Below are positions 1,271 to 48,081 of a stretch of DNA of 64,000 nucleotides, one piece after another. This DNA comes from Nitrosopumilus sp. (GTDB taxonomy: Archaea; Thermoproteota; Nitrososphaeria; Nitrososphaerales; Nitrosopumilaceae): positions 1,728,001 through 1,792,000 of the forward strand of contig OZ245003.1 of NCBI GenBank assembly GCA_965223425.1. The letters are read 5' to 3'. Position numbers and translations under genes: made by a program. The stretch's first letter is position 1. Every line of letters begins with the position of its first letter. The notes under the pieces were generated by a model, which saw nothing but the letters and a program-made list of their open reading frames with translations, was not told the DNA's origin and did not search any database.

Positions 1271-1530
1271 AGGCGGCAAAGTTTGGGAACGGGGATGCGA
1301 TAGAGAGATACATACACTGTTCGATGTGCTTGGACACCGTCCCTACCGGACAGAGCCCGCAGGAATGGTCGCGCTATGAGGTGGGGTTAACAAAGTGGGG
1401 AATTCAGATATGGTGCGCACGCCACAAATGCAACATAATGCACATAAACTTTGAGGGAGAGAGGCACCCGGCAGACATGACGGCAACAGAGCCGAGCAGA
1501 AAAAGCCGTCAGATGAAGGAGGAGGAATAA
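1267..1530 (+). CDS. Small putative Zn-binding protein
   Basis: 87 aa with HCxxC and WCxxH motifs; ATGA overlap with the upstream gene. Confidence 0.7.
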   Translation: MKAAKFGNGDAIERYIHCSMCLDTVPTGQSPQEWSRYEVGLTKWGIQIWCARHKCNIMHINFEGERHPADMTATEPSRKSRQMKEEE

Positions 1531-1925
1531 TGGTGGGAACAAACGCGCTGGCAAAGACATTTGAGGCACTGGACCGGCACGACTCACACATGAGAACATT
1601 TCGTCGTCTGTACTGCGAGTCAGGACAGACAGCAAGAAAGGCGTACATGTTTGTCAATTCCTCAACAAAAACAAGGATTGAAAAAATAATGAAAAAGTGT
1701 GAGAGCTGCAAGTACACAAAGCTGCAACCGAGAACAATAGTGCTGGTCTACGAGGCATTGGCCGCCAAAGGTGAGATAGAGGTTCTGGCAGAGTTGTGCA
1801 GGCAGATCAGTTCAAAGAAGGCATACAGGCTATGCAACAAAAGAACCCAGAGGACAATACAGACGCTGTCCCAAGATGTGAAGGGAAAATCACACAAAAC
1901 ACCAAAAAAACAAAAAAGGGAATAA
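1530..1925 (+). CDS. Hypothetical basic protein
   Basis: 131 aa with a strong GGAGG RBS, TAATG coupling, a CxxC motif and a K-rich C-terminus. Confidence 0.65.
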   Translation: MVGTNALAKTFEALDRHDSHMRTFRRLYCESGQTARKAYMFVNSSTKTRIEKIMKKCESCKYTKLQPRTIVLVYEALAAKGEIEVLAELCRQISSKKAYRLCNKRTQRTIQTLSQDVKGKSHKTPKKQKRE

Positions 1926-2505
1926 TCCCCCTGATGATTCTGTAGCAAATAAAATGAGCCTCCATACCGGGGTGTTGTTTGCTGCAGATGCTTGACTGTC
2001 GTTGTATGACGAGAGTCGGGTGGCCCAGTCCACACGGGCTTGGCCGAAACCATGAGAGTGTGCCGATGAACATCGGCATACTGATGATGGCAGCAATGTC
2101 ATCAGATGCACAGATATTGTGCAGTCATGGTCGGGGAAAAAGAATCAGACTAACAGAATAAATCAACTACTTGCTCCCCATGATTCTGAGGCAAAGGAAA
2201 AGTTATCACCAAAAAAACAAAAAAGGGAATAATCCCCCTGATGATTCTGTAGCAAATAAAATGAGCCTCCATACCGGGGTGTTGCTTGCTGCAGATGCTT
2301 GACTGTCGTTGTATGACGAGAGTCGGGTGGCCCAGTCCACACGGGCTTGGCCGAAACCATGAGAGTGTGCCGATGAACATCGGCATACTGATGATGGCAG
2401 CAATGTCATCAGATGCACAGATATTGTGCAGTCATGGTCGGGGAAATAATAATGATCACGTAATAATCAAATCGTCCTTACTTACCCTGATTCTGAGGCA
2501 AAGGA
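1901..2505. repeat. Tandem duplication, period 307 bp: conserved structured scaffold, 41-nt variable window, 18-nt conserved tail
   Basis: 1901-2139 matches 2208-2446 with one substitution seen. 2140-2180 and 2447-2487 differ. TGATTCTGAGGCAAAGGA follows at 2181 and 2488. Confidence 0.9.
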
Positions 2506-2770
2506 GAAACGGCCCCACAAACGTGGTGCCGGCAGGCCGTACAAGCTGCATGCCATTCAATGTTTTGTATTTGATAATATGTCAAATGCGCAAGCTGCAT
2601 CTGCTGATTGCAGACCCGCGCGTGTTTACGTGAATCGTTCTCTCTTGGAGTGGGACATTAAATGAGGACGATCCTCAAATGGGATCGCCTCCCACACTGC
2701 AAGCGCAGGGTTAGGCATGTCGTTTTGGAGTGCTCTTTGCGTCAACCGGGCCTCAGCTCGGTTCTATCCT
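1918..2770 (+). ncRNA. Candidate structured non-coding RNA block (strand uncertain)
   Basis: Dense hairpins, including TCTGTAGCAAA/TTTGCTGCAGA, GTGTGCCGATG/CATCGGCATAC, CTGATGA/TCATCAG, TGCACA/TGTGCA, CCATGA/TCATGG and CTGAGGC/GCCTCAG. No credible ORF. Confidence 0.5.
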
Positions 2771-2906: not shown

Positions 2907-3051
2907 ATGATCACAGTACAGGAAAAGACATGGACGTATTGACTTGGTTCTCAGCACCTGCGCCGTCTCCGGCACCATGTAATCACAGTACAGGAAAAGA
3001 CATGGACGTATTGACTCTTATTGCCAATAACATACGTCTGGCTTGCGTGAA
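2907..3051 (+). CRISPR. Putative mini-CRISPR array (2 repeats, 1 enclosed spacer, possible trailing spacer)
   Basis: Identical 35-mer ATCACAGTACAGGAAAAGACATGGACGTATTGACT at 2910 and 2982 (period 72). The 37-nt reading GTAATCAC...ATTGAC has CRISPR-like ends. No cas genes in the window. Confidence 0.5.
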
Positions 3052-3100
3052 ACCAAGTTCACCCAAGTTCACCCAAGTTCACCCAAGTTATAATAAGATA
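3051..3100 (+). promoter_or_regulatory. Four 10-bp direct repeats (ACCCAAGTTC) ending in a TATA-like box upstream of the Type ISP gene
   Basis: AACCAAGTTC-ACCCAAGTTC-ACCCAAGTTC-ACCCAAGTTA then TAATAAGATAAAA, about 25-30 nt before the inferred start. Confidence 0.55.
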
Positions 3101-3122: not shown

Positions 3123-7279
<4,157 letters not shown>

Positions 7280-7280
<1 letters not shown>

Positions 7281-7909
7281 TGCAGGACAATATCACCGAC
7301 TTTGCCCTTGAAGAGTACAGGGAACACTACAAGAACGATAAAATAGAAAAAAACGACATCTTCTTCTACATCTACGGCATTTTACACCACGGCGGGTACA
7401 GGAAGAAATATGCAAACAACCTGACACGTGAGCTGCCACACATTCCCATGGCACCGGACTTTTTAGCATTTTCAAAAATTGGAAAAGAATTGGCAGATCT
7501 ACATTTATCATATGAGACATGCAAGAGATATGATTTGGGAAAACCAAAATCAGAATTTGGCAGATACGCAAAGATGTCGTTTGCAAAAAAGAAGGAAAAC
7601 GGCAGGCAGGTAACTGACACTACAACCCTGAGGATCAACGGGATAACCGTCTTTGAGAATATCCCTGATGTCAAGTACAGGGTAAACGGCAGGACGCCAT
7701 TGGAATGGGCCATAGACCGCTACAGGAGAACAGTAGACAAGGACAGCGGCATAGTAAATGACGCAACAGACATTGACGTCATACCGCTCATTGAAAGGCT
7801 CATACATGTAGGGGTGGAATCAGACAGGCTGGTATCCGGACTTCCAAAGGAGTTTGAGCCGAAAAACTGGGACCCGAAAAAAACAGGAATGGACAAGTTC
7901 ATTGGTTGA
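7280..7909 (+). CDS. Type ISP enzyme C-terminal domain (separate frame)
   Basis: DNITD...IFFYIYGILH...YANNLTRELPHIP...YRVNGRTPLEWAIDRY is typical of LlaGI-like C-termini. TGATG overlap with the upstream ORF; frame is open from 7109. Confidence 0.85.
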
Positions 7910-8081
7910 AATTTGACTGAGATTGTCAAGTTGTGTGATCCATGCAGGTGCCCCCCAAAATGTGACGAAAGGCCCATCAAAATCTGATACACACCACAAG
8001 GTCACCACAGAATCAGACCACAGGAACAGTCGGCATCAGAAAAAAAGACGCACTGAATACAACCACGTCAGATATCAGGTG

Positions 8082-8462
8082 ATGCCAAAGCTGCACATGA
8101 TACAAAAGACGAAAAAAGAGACCTACAGAACCACAAGGCACGAGTCGTACAGCATTGTGATACCGTATGAAATATCCAAGAGTTTTCACATAGCAGACGG
8201 TATGACTCTGCATGCAACGGTATCAGAGGACACGGGAACAGTGAGGTTGCACAGGAATCCAAAGGAAAACTCCATGCGAGTTTTACTGCGACACAAACTC
8301 ACAAAGACCTACAAGAAACAGAAATACCACTCCACGCGAGTCACGATACCGATCGAGATTGTCAAGAGGCTGAAACTGGCAAAGGGGGATCAGATCGACG
8401 TTACAGAGTCAAAAAACAGCCTTGTTCTAAGGAAGACAAAACTGCACCGAAATTTGCCATAG
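8082..8462 (+). CDS. Double AbrB/MazE/SpoVT-type DNA-binding protein
   Basis: Two copies of the motif: YSIVIPYEISKSFHIADG and RVTIPIEIVKRLKLAKGDQID. Start position uncertain. Confidence 0.7.
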   Translation: MPKLHMIQKTKKETYRTTRHESYSIVIPYEISKSFHIADGMTLHATVSEDTGTVRLHRNPKENSMRVLLRHKLTKTYKKQKYHSTRVTIPIEIVKRLKLAKGDQIDVTESKNSLVLRKTKLHRNLP

Positions 8463-8489: not shown

Positions 8490-9510
8490 GCCGTCCAATT
8501 AACATTAACCGTTTCCATTTTTTCTTAAATTAAATTTTTCTGATACCGTGATTAGCCTGAAGGAACGACATGAAAATTAAAAAAATTAAACTCACGCCGT
8601 TAAATTGAACGTTCCCCCCCCCCTCACTAATTTTACAGTCAAATTTACACCGCTTAAAATTAATTATTCGCCCTGCCCTTCCGCCTGATCACTCTAGAGA
8701 ATTCCGCCCTGCCAGTCAAAATTAACTTATTTTTTCCATTCCATTCTTCCGTTCCAAGAATCATTTCACTCCAAAGAACCATCCTCCGGGAACCGTTCCA
8801 AAAAGTCATTCCATAGAACCGTTCCATTCTGCTCCTCAAAAAATTAAAAAAATCACTTCAAAAAATCATTCCATCATTCCTCCAAAGAATCATACCATTA
8901 CTCCAAAAGTTATCCATTCCTCCAGGAACCATACCTCTAGAACCGTTCCATCATTCCTCCAAAGAACCGTTCCAAAAAGTCATTCCTCTAGAACCGTTCC
9001 ATCATTCCTCCAAAGAACCGTTCCATCGTTCCTCCAAAGAACCGTTCCATCATTCTATTCCAGGAATCACTCCAAAAATCATACCCTCAAAATTATCCGT
9101 TCAAGTGCGCCCCCCCCTGTTTTAATTTTAGCCGGAATAAATTTTAGTTTAATTTTGTTGAATTTTAATTTTAACTTTATCCTGCCGTTCCGTCATTCCA
9201 TTCCGTTTAATTTTAATCGAGGCTGTTCTGTAGAATCGTTCTGTAGAATCGTTCTGTAGAATCGTTCTGTAGAATCGTTCCATCATTCCTCCAAAGAATC
9301 GTTTTAGTTTATTTTTTAAATTTTAATTTAACTTTATCCTGCTGCCGTGGAATTATTTCGTGGAATAGTTTCATAGAGCTGTTCCAAAAGGGGATTGGGG
9401 GGGATAGTAGAATGACTTTAAGATTTTTTAATTTTATTGGTGTTGATTGGGGATGTTAATTTTAATGCCATCCTTCCATCCGTCGGGGGAGGCTATGGCC
9501 AGAAAATAAT
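8490..9510. repeat. Low-complexity, strand-biased repeat region (possible origin or element end)
   Basis: Several copies of AGAACCGTTCCATCATTCCTCCAA (about 8800-9060), GTTCTGTAGAATC x4 (9225-9276), A/T tracts, C and G runs. No ORF. Confidence 0.8.
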
Positions 9511-22605: not shown

Positions 22606-22713
22606 TAATTGAATCATAAAAATTTTTCCGAAAGATTTAGATCCATTTTGATCGCCGCAACAGGTAATGGAATCTTCAGAACAGACGATACGCAGGCTGC
22701 AAAGGGAGCTCAA

Positions 22714-22893
22714 GCAAAAGGACACAGCAATCAGGCAAAAGGACACAGCAATCAGGCAAAAGGACACAGCAATCAGGCAAAAGGACACAGCAATCAGGCA
22801 AAAGGACACAGCAATCAGGCAAAAGGACACAGCAATCAGGCAGAACAACACAGCAATCAGGCAGAACAACACAGCAATCAGGCAGAACAACAC
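22714..22893 (+). repeat. 21-bp tandem repeat (about 8.5 units) encoding QKDTAIR/QNNTAIR heptads
   Basis: GACACAGCAATCAGGCAAAAG units followed by AACACAGCAATCAGGCAGAAC variants, within ORF 22667-22897. Confidence 0.9.
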
Positions 22894-47608: not shown

Positions 47609-48081
47609 TAAACGATGGCAGGGTGTACATTCTTTGGATTATGCCTGATCAATCTTTCAAGTGCCTGAGAAGCCGCGTATTTGTTTGTATCAATATAAAT
47701 GCCCGCATGGGAATGGTTTTTGGGTTTTGGTCTATGTTTGATTTGTGGCATATGCGTCACCTCACTTACAGCGGTCTTGATATCTCCGACACCAAGAACT
47801 GCAAACATACCTCTCTTTCTAATCTCATAGCCAGTACCGGGAAATAATTCCCGAAGCTGATCTACAGCTTCAGACACATTTGACTGGACAAGAAATTCTA
47901 ACCAATTGACCGATAGAAATTCTTCTCCCTTGCGAAATCTAAATGCTGTAATTGTAGGCATATTATATTCATTAATGGTTCCAGGACTACAATATCGTGC
48001 CACGTTGTCTTTGTCGGGAATGTCTTTGTCGGGAATGTCTTTGTCGGGAATGTCTTTGTCGGGAATGTCTTTGCCGATCAC
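47609..48081 (-). CDS. Hypothetical protein, possible ART-like toxin; N-terminal (DIPDK)x4; IS inserted at its stop codon
   Basis: VARY...AF.FR..E.FLSVNW...HSHAGI pattern; 15-bp repeat at about 48006-48073. Removing the IS restores ...ATC GTT TAA. Confidence 0.65.

Follow-up and report, generated by a model that had tools for sequence, protein, structure and literature searches.

A predicted structured RNA of a new family beside a small-protein gene in integrated elements of Nitrosopumilaceae, and its tandem duplication with divergent 41-nucleotide segments in Nitrosopumilus sp.

The stretch of DNA analyzed here (the window) comprised 64,000 nucleotides (nt) of a Nitrosopumilus sp. genome (GenBank assembly GCA_965223425.1, contig OZ245003.1, positions 1,728,001 to 1,792,000 of the forward strand). 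Positions given below without a prefix are those of the window. Near its left end, an orphan gene for a protein of 131 amino acids (the ORF131 family; 1530..1925, + strand) runs into two tandem units of 307 bp on the same strand (1900..2206 and 2207..2513), and each unit carries one copy of a predicted RNA (copy 1, 1917..2148; copy 2, 2224..2455; both +). The stop codon of the ORF131 gene lies within the first bases of RNA copy 1. The original prediction, made from the letters alone, had taken these units for a constant scaffold with a programmable segment, placed after orphan genes in a mobile element.

The architecture of the repeat was reproduced in full. Tandem Repeats Finder reported an array at 1900-2505 with a period of 307, 2.0 copies and 94% matches, and a separate repeat search gave the same start-to-start distance of 307 nt. 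Compared base by base, the 240 nt at 1900-2139 were equal to those at 2207-2446 with a sole mismatch (1978 vs. 2285). The 41-nt segments behind them (2140..2180 and 2447..2487, +) differed at 26 of 41 positions in a gap-free comparison, and each was followed by an identical 18-nt tail (2181..2198 and 2488..2505, +), which resembles the 5' start of the RNA in this lineage only. The repeat proper stops at 2505, inside the second 307-bp unit. Thus, the exact period, the constant part of ~239 nt bar one substitution, and the divergent 41 nt with the identical tail behind them all stood as they had been described. Genome-wide, the unit has two copies, both in this tandem. An assembly artefact had been named as a possible refutation, and the tandem layout was backed by Logan contigs of four runs from two studies, one of which runs may be the source sample of this assembly. 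In these contigs the shared 240-nt piece had about twice the depth of its flanks. One single-depth piece (2110-2236) bridged the repeat end, the first 41-nt segment, and the repeat start, and another (2417-2800) bridged the repeat end, the second segment, and the downstream DNA. By this depth and these bridging pieces, and within what contigs can tell, the duplication is genuine and no product of misassembly.

Comparative evidence confirmed the constant part as a predicted structured RNA scaffold of a new family, ~145-230 nt long. In copy 1, which scored 192.9 bits (E 1.8e-39) in a cmsearch run, the scaffold proper occupies ~1918-2141; copy 2 scored 189.9 bits. The overall plan is a short closing helix, P0 (CCCC/GGGG), which encloses a five-way junction with the arms P1 to P4. 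In the minimum free energy (MFE) fold of copy 1, P0 pairs 1929-1933 with 2132-2136 (+), and the alignment lengthens this helix through the invariant strands CCCUGAU.AU and AU.GGUNGGG. Its pairs were kept in 95% of cases, and the near-invariance of the two strands left almost no covariation in it. P1 (1939..1988, +) is a long hairpin in which 1939-1952 pairs with 1975-1988, followed inward by an internal loop and a tip hairpin (1958-1962 with 1969-1973). The substitution at 2285 in copy 2 turns an A-U pair of this arm into A-C. P2 (1990..2021, +) is a hairpin in the MFE fold. Its sequence varies among species, and a hairpin stood at the same place in all 15 separate MFE folds. P3 (2022..2045, +) is the most conserved arm and is directly followed by the invariant GCCGAAAC. 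P4 (2049..2131, +) forms a four-way junction, in which 2049-2055 with 2125-2131 encloses three hairpins (2057-2082, 2085-2104, and 2107-2123). This reproduced the junction closed by CCATGA/TCATGG that had been foreseen. Elsewhere, P4 is a plain hairpin in some species and another branched form in others. The strands of the junction are nearly invariant, namely the 7-nt UGAUGAU between P0 and P1, GCCGAAAC, and GGUNGGGGAAA, and the covariation model pairs CUGAUGA with AUGGUNGGGG.

The covariation asked for by the original prediction was strong. In the alignment of 19 copies, 96.2% of 728 cells were paired, compared with 34-45% when the partners were slid by 1-3 columns, and compensatory changes were found in 23 of 41 pairs. 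They were most frequent in P1 (14 of 15 pairs) and also occurred in P3 (6 of 13 pairs). None of 500 shuffles reached any of five structure measures in this alignment. Folded singly, 15 of 15 copies gave the same P0 and four arms by MFE. The comparisons further showed the predicted RNA to be encoded on the + strand. One unit folded on this strand at -116 kcal/mol (z -7.2; 0 of 100 shuffles equal or better), and on the - strand z was -2.75. That the + strand is the one that folds follows from five invariant U-G pairs, which would become C-A mismatches on the opposite strand. Both P0 and the strands of the junction remained nearly invariant from AT-rich members (35% G+C) to GC-rich ones (64% G+C), and such constancy across the G+C range points to sequence-specific recognition or tertiary contacts in the putative RNA.

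The same pairs bear on whether the conserved feature might act as DNA, without any RNA, that is, as a single-stranded DNA fold (an origin, a transfer site or a recombination site) or as an attachment site. Several comparisons put recombination break points at the scaffold's 3' edge, the shared segment of genomes G007 and G172 ends 0.3-1.5 kb away from the feature, and the element contains an ArdC-like gene, as conjugative elements do. However, invariant G-U pairs together with compensatory change in four arms speak for a folded single strand, which is most simply RNA. A comparison of the left 70 kb with the right flank gave no direct repeat of at least 14 nt, repeats were also absent from the ends of the 19-23 kb stretch that is duplicated in G172, no tyrosine recombinase lay within ~150 kb, and the motif of the P0 3' strand was single in G007. 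Moreover, a backbone gene of the element lies downstream and places the RNA inside it. A role at the DNA level is thus highly improbable. As an attachment site in particular, the feature was rejected for its lack of flanking direct repeats, of a nearby integrase, and of a second core motif. A third match to the P0 3' motif in G172 fell inside a protein gene. The related locus of genome G163, considered as an occupied attachment site, is more plausibly what remains of an element after interruption by insertion-sequence debris.

Searches with the covariance model, which was first built from seven sequences and was applied across the family in an even sample, showed that the RNA is sparsely distributed. 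It was found in 11 of 151 Nitrosopumilus genomes, the present one included, and in the family sample in 4 of 151 genomes, again with our own, from 3 of 27 genera. Altogether, 19 full copies were collected at 17 places, including two further genera and two loose contigs, and one additional 3' fragment was found in G153. Fifteen of the 17 places hold a single copy. BLAST searches of the unit against relatives gave short matches, which led to homologous loci in G036 and G009, where the RNA likewise follows an ORF131 homologue. A metagenome scan by DNA pattern gave one contig with the RNA, and a protein-based scan of genome contigs gave further copies, including one on a 10-kb contig (L015/L048), which was not circular and had no terminal repeats. 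Among viral contigs, neither the protein nor the RNA pattern had a match. No Rfam 15 family reached its gathering score in the window; with E up to 10, nothing appeared on the + strand of the scaffold and the hits were at chance level. The loci of six relatives also gave chance-level Rfam hits only, the nearest being tpke11 (23 bits vs. 43). No tRNA or tmRNA was found in the window. The second place with a tandem pair lies in another genus and in GC-rich DNA (L051, G251:C2, 1501-1979, - strand). There, the two units are identical over their first 107 nt and again over 16 nt of the P0 3' strand, whereas the P4 arms in between and the trailers behind are unrelated.

The gene most closely associated with the RNA is that of the ORF131 family. 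Of the 14 other places tested, 10 had a homologue upstream of the RNA, and in 8 cases it was within 35 nt of the RNA or overlapped it; the four places of this set without one upstream were L028, L029, L030, and the fragment L033. Genome G188 has a broken homologue. The family is rare, with 18 representatives among 1.84 billion proteins, and a word-based protein search returned two relatives besides the protein itself. Four cysteines are invariant in it. Its AlphaFold model is all-helical, with a predicted local distance difference test (pLDDT) value of 84, and had no fold match in the PDB (best Foldseek E 0.55). No Pfam, PHROG, or NCBIfam family was matched, the ESM Atlas had no usable match, and no homologue was found in phage records.

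This proximity could mean that the RNA is the 3' untranslated region of the ORF131 operon, a compact fold that ends or protects the mRNA as a nuclease-resistant end without any function in trans. The ORF131 stop codon inside the RNA start, the absence of a TATA-like box before copy 1 in our genome, and the distance of at most 35 nt at eight places would all suit such an element. Yet the junction strands are nearly invariant over three genera and the architecture is over-elaborate for a stabilizer. Besides, the RNA occurs at several places where ORF131 is not detectable, and most relatives have a TATA-like box of their own ~27 nt upstream of the RNA. On balance, we regard this explanation as quite improbable.

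The genes around the RNA indicate the kind of element to which it belongs. Upstream on the same strand are orphan genes that encode a PCNA-like protein, two paralogous proteins of ~770 amino acids, an ArdC-like anti-restriction protein, and a DUF2958 protein, and several of these backbone genes recur beside the RNA in two other genera. The order of the backbone is PCNA-like, the two paralogues, ArdC-like, ORF87, ORF131, the RNA, and an AbrB-like gene. The PCNA-like gene with the two paralogues was observed as a conserved group beside the RNA in three genera, at L018 423-5819 (G000:C1:1708423-1713819, on the present genome) and at L053, L054, and L055. The paralogues had no Pfam, NCBIfam, or PDB sequence match, and a search of the PDB with the 762-amino-acid backbone protein gave no sequence match either. 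By eye, their conserved N-terminal motifs appear to resemble those of GHKL ATPases.

Downstream in the window is an AbrB/SpoVT-like gene (7923..8462, +; Pfam PF04014), which matches the corresponding gene of relatives at 50% identity (BLASTP, E 1e-42). At five other places (L023, L024, L032, L028, and G251), an AbrB/SpoVT-like gene for 130 amino acids stands 400-700 nt after the RNA. Because this backbone gene lies downstream, the RNA is internal to the element and is not its end. Between the two in our genome is a Type ISP restriction-modification gene (3141..7909, +), assigned by Pfam, whose open reading frames 3141-7280 and 7157-7909 overlap and which may be frameshifted. Its domains are an Mrr-like nuclease, a helicase, a methylase, and a specificity domain. 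Judged by the gene order, it is cargo that separates the RNA from the next gene of the backbone, the AbrB-like one. The intergenic DNA that separates the RNA from the AbrB-like gene at other loci had no nucleotide match in the window. The backbone comparison and the family searches therefore supported the placing of the cassettes after orphan genes in a mobile element, and they identify the predicted RNA as an internal module of a mosaic integrated element family of Nitrosopumilaceae.

At six places, our own among them, the AbrB-like gene lies downstream and is oriented like the RNA, and the RNA might instead be a cis-regulatory leader, similar to a riboswitch, that controls downstream genes such as this one. 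The P0 3' strand would then pair alternatively with a sequence farther downstream that resembles the P0 5' strand. The complex junction with its invariant bases and the TATA-like box upstream of the RNA in most relatives would suit a leader, a look-alike of the P0 5' strand is present in the trailer of our locus, L020, and L028, and tandem aptamers are known in some riboswitch classes. But the downstream neighbor varies (the AbrB-like gene, a membrane protein of 191 amino acids, purD, or none), and it is ORF131, upstream, that is the constant partner. The next gene begins 325-924 nt away, and 5.4 kb away in our locus. Beyond the trivial match to the next unit, 3 of 18 copies had a significant 5'-strand look-alike and 4 of 18 a significant alternative duplex. 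Neither a constant gene class downstream nor a competing platform common to the copies was found, and a leader is accordingly improbable. With so few copies significant, whether by similarity (3 of 18) or by duplex energy (4 of 18), a tail that mimics the 5' strand was dropped as a general switch.

The 41-nt segments, on which the idea of a programmable RNA depends, are A-rich and contain promoter-like motifs. The first has a TATA-like ATAAAT at 2158-2163 and the second a TATA-like TAATAA at 2461-2466. Genome-wide in our genome, ATAAAT, TAATAA, and AATAAA peak 26-35 nt before start codons. A 17-mer of the first segment (2150-2166) is identical to a site in 34 Nitrosopumilus genomes among the matches listed, and in our own genome it matches at 16 of 17 positions in the same sense, 21-37 nt upstream of a gene start. 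Searches of the two segments against host and viral sequence gave nothing significant. In the genome itself no target exceeded chance (best 17/18 and 16/17; several 13-mers are expected), 150 other Nitrosopumilus genomes gave short matches only, and 50,697 phage records gave none. The many 12-14-mer matches of the tail fall in insertion sequences of 22-27 copies, and since they are inside multi-copy insertion sequences, each such set counts as one chance match.

Nor did the segment behave as hypervariable at fixed length among relatives, as the original prediction had expected. The two dispersed copies of G172 have trailers identical at 45 of 45 positions and are alike for ~800 nt more. Across three species (L015, L023, and L025), the trailers were 89-91% identical, and the scaffolds 82-91%. 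Larger pieces are exchanged at this point. The scaffold of L020 is like that of L021 (84%), and its trailer is like that of L028 (76%), although the scaffolds of L020 and L028 are only 55% identical. In G163 the RNA and ORF131 are absent, and the last ~15 nt of the scaffold with 340 nt behind it are retained beside insertion-sequence debris. By these comparisons, scaffold and trailer reassort as recombination blocks, and the trailer is not hypervariable in relatives.

In a programmable RNA array, the 41-nt segment, and perhaps P4, would be a guide or template directed at nucleic-acid targets, and the tandem units would have different specificities. Near-identical scaffolds beside unrelated segments of equal length with a constant tail are what such an array would look like, and a second tandem pair with constant and variable blocks in another genus, the setting in a mobile element, and the reassortment of scaffold and trailer among genomes also favor it. 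These points are outweighed by the remaining evidence. No reverse transcriptase was found in the genome, and the nearest TnpB-type, IS110-type, and Cas1 genes are 52 kb, 76 kb, and ~366 kb away. The segments are A-rich with TATA-like boxes, they lack a significant match in the genome itself, in the 150 other genomes of the genus or in the phage records, and their best match is a promoter-like 17-mer in the same sense. In addition, 15 of 17 places are single-copy, and close relatives inherit the trailer with the scaffold. Therefore, the scaffold half of the original proposal was supported by the covariation of 19 copies, while the programmable half, for want of machinery and of targets and with a trailer that is inherited or swapped in blocks, is very unlikely. 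The second tandem pair, that of G251, remains a point in its favor, as it too has constant and variable blocks.

Comparison with known RNA systems agreed with this. Like the omegaRNA or reRNA of IscB and TnpB (IS200/605; Rfam HEARO), the RNA is a scaffold of 150-250 nt in a mobile element beside a copy-variable stretch. However, it had no Rfam match, the nearest of 17 PF07282 matches lies 52 kb downstream (IscB was not searched for), and the gene upstream is ORF131. Besides, a backbone gene follows and the G172 copies have 45 of 45 trailer positions and ~800 nt more in common, so that the variable stretch flanks no transposon end. With the bridge RNA of IS110 it has in common that it is folded, belongs to a mobile element, and varies in segments inside it or at its end, but the nearest of 28 PF01548 matches is 76 kb away and the RNA is linked to ORF131 rather than to a DEDD recombinase; a 12-13-mer in common with a 22-copy insertion sequence was at chance level. 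The msr-msd RNAs of retrons and the template RNAs of diversity-generating retroelements also have paired ends that close a structured RNA and tandem or paired constant and variable repeats. In contrast to them, PF00078 had no match in this genome, which is 99.99% complete (3 of 14 genomes used as controls had matches), and the segments differ at other bases besides adenines. CRISPR arrays and virus-borne mini-arrays alternate constant and variable blocks in mobile elements as well, but their repeats are 25-40 nt long and usually number at least three units, whereas here a multi-helix RNA of 240 nt stands in two units of 307 nt. The host has a CRISPR array with an unrelated 36-nt repeat (G000:C1:1357368-1362452) beside Cas1 (1363612-1364484), and its spacers had no match in the 45 kb around the RNA.

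The archaeal box C/D small RNAs offer another likeness, with a C-box-like CUGAUGA on the 5' side and a CUGA in the tail. But the covariation model gives CUGAUGA the partner AUGGUNGGGG rather than a D box, and by eye a terminal stem and a D box are not conserved across relatives. Rfam gave no significant box C/D match on the + strand and a sub-threshold sR11 match on the - strand (E 2.8). Just after the RNA of G188 (L049, 1737-1794) there is a weak sR35 match (E 0.024; 24 bits vs. a gathering score of 60), and C-box-like motifs were also seen by eye after the RNA in L020 and L028. A hammerhead ribozyme was considered, as CUGAUGA and GAAA are both present, and was rejected: there was no Rfam match with E up to 10, and by eye the helices place no stem II between the two motifs. 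More generally, a kink-turn or hammerhead reading of CUGAUGA...GAAA...CUGA is at odds with the helices found, and a box C/D reading appears to be so too. GOLLD, ROOL, OLE, and raiA are RNAs of unknown function with elaborate, covariation-backed folds, often in prophages or genomic islands. As compared through Rfam, the present RNA differs from them in being archaeal and smaller, with a different fold and a specific small-protein gene.

Several other features of the locus and the genome were observed. Between the RNA and the Type ISP gene, two identical 35-nt direct repeats (2910-2944 and 2982-3016) surround a unique segment of 37 nt. The reverse complement of this segment matches a coding stretch of the element (G000:C1:1715688-1715723) at 34 of 36 positions, and two paralogues at 30 of 34. 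The 35-nt repeat was not found in 150 other Nitrosopumilus genomes and is unlike the host CRISPR repeat. By its letters, the unit at 2910-3016 resembles a mini-array with a single spacer, or else an antisense unit against element genes. Short perfect tandem repeats with periods of 10-24 nt occur at 3053-3089, 8852-9055, 22710-22884, and 48006-48073.

The genome (2.64 Mb, large for the genus) is rich in insertion sequences, which include families of 22-27 near-identical copies (e.g., C1:294980 and C1:851686 of G000), with 28 IS110-type and 17 TnpB-type matches in addition, and this abundance fits the genome size. About 32 kb upstream of the RNA, two tRNA-Ile(GAT) genes stand 1.1 kb apart (L019 8868-8955 and 10002-10091; G000:C1:~1696868 and ~1698002), and this pair might mark a former integration site, with the element's left border there. 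Among relatives, the site upstream of purD (phosphoribosylamine-glycine ligase) is an integration hot spot (L035/L041 of G163; L034 of G007). G007 has an RNA-bearing element there, and G163 has IS5- and IS66-type fragments with an HNH gene. In G000, a tyrosine recombinase lies 1.2 kb from its own purD. A casposon at purD is mentioned in PMC6563490.

The repeat, the RNA family with its structure and strand, and the linkage to ORF131 and to the element were established by these comparisons. Starting from them, we consider it probable that the locus is a tandem duplication of a new RNA gene borne by the element, in which the 41-nt segment is a trailer or spacer and the functional part would be the scaffold with ORF131, not a guide. 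Most relatives have a TATA-like box ~27 nt upstream of the RNA, and our genome has none before copy 1. The RNA would be expressed by read-through from the ORF131 gene here and from its own TATA-like box in most relatives, and it would presumably act as a structured RNA in its own right. The 41-nt segment would then be an A-rich trailer or intergenic spacer that holds the end of one transcript and the TATA-like box for the next; the box in the first segment would serve copy 2, and that in the second would serve a further transcript. The point just behind the scaffold would be a hot spot of recombination and cargo insertion in these mosaic elements, and because the 3' edge of the scaffold is such a hot spot, the two trailers may be of different descent. 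The scaffolds may have been kept or made identical through recent duplication or gene conversion. The weakest step is the last one, in which the RNA would be a folded scaffold that works with the ORF131 protein in maintenance of the element, in regulation, or in counter-defense.

Several observations weigh against this account. Scaffolds identical at 239 of 240 positions beside segments identical at 15 of 41 (ungapped) require a special history, which would be sharp-bordered gene conversion or a recombination of two element lineages. The equal lengths of 41 nt and the identical 18-nt tail hint at a constraint on spacing or sequence beyond that of a mere spacer. The alignments used for covariation were fitted to the model, which biases them toward the structure, a bias that the separate MFE folds offset. 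No RNA run was listed among the public runs that hold the stretch, and the transcript, its ends, and its processing are predictions. Moreover, ORF131 was undetected at G251, G214, L028, L029, and L030, so the partner is not universal. ORF131 has no family, fold, or atlas match, the partnership is putative, and the function proposed for the RNA is a guess. Lastly, tandem pairs with constant and variable blocks exist at 2 of 17 places, in two genera, a recurrence that is hard to put down to a single accident and is in keeping with a modular design.

For this last reason, we keep alive the idea of a modular specificity RNA, in which a constant five-way-junction core would be bound by an element protein, e.g., ORF131, and exchangeable modules (P4 and the trailer) would set recognition. 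Tandem pairing of two versions would, as part of this idea, widen the recognition range. We think it unlikely. If true, it would explain the tandem pairs in two genera, the conserved length of the segment, and the break points at module borders, and programmable RNAs would gain a new class. If it is false, and the 41-nt segment is a trailer as we prefer, the RNA would still be a well-supported new archaeal RNA family.

A literature search at the level of listings and abstracts found no description of this RNA. In the main text of a survey of thaumarchaeal integrated elements (PMC6563490), the terms "ncRNA" and "non-coding" had no occurrences. The newness lies, as far as comparative evidence goes, at the level of the RNA family and of the putative RNA-protein module, mechanism aside.

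To our knowledge, no complex structured RNA has been described for mobile elements of Nitrosopumilaceae. In archaea, few complex structured RNAs have strong covariation support, and the predicted RNA would join them. It also provides a handle on little-known elements that move genes among ammonia oxidizers of global abundance; the genes moved here are those of a Type ISP restriction system.

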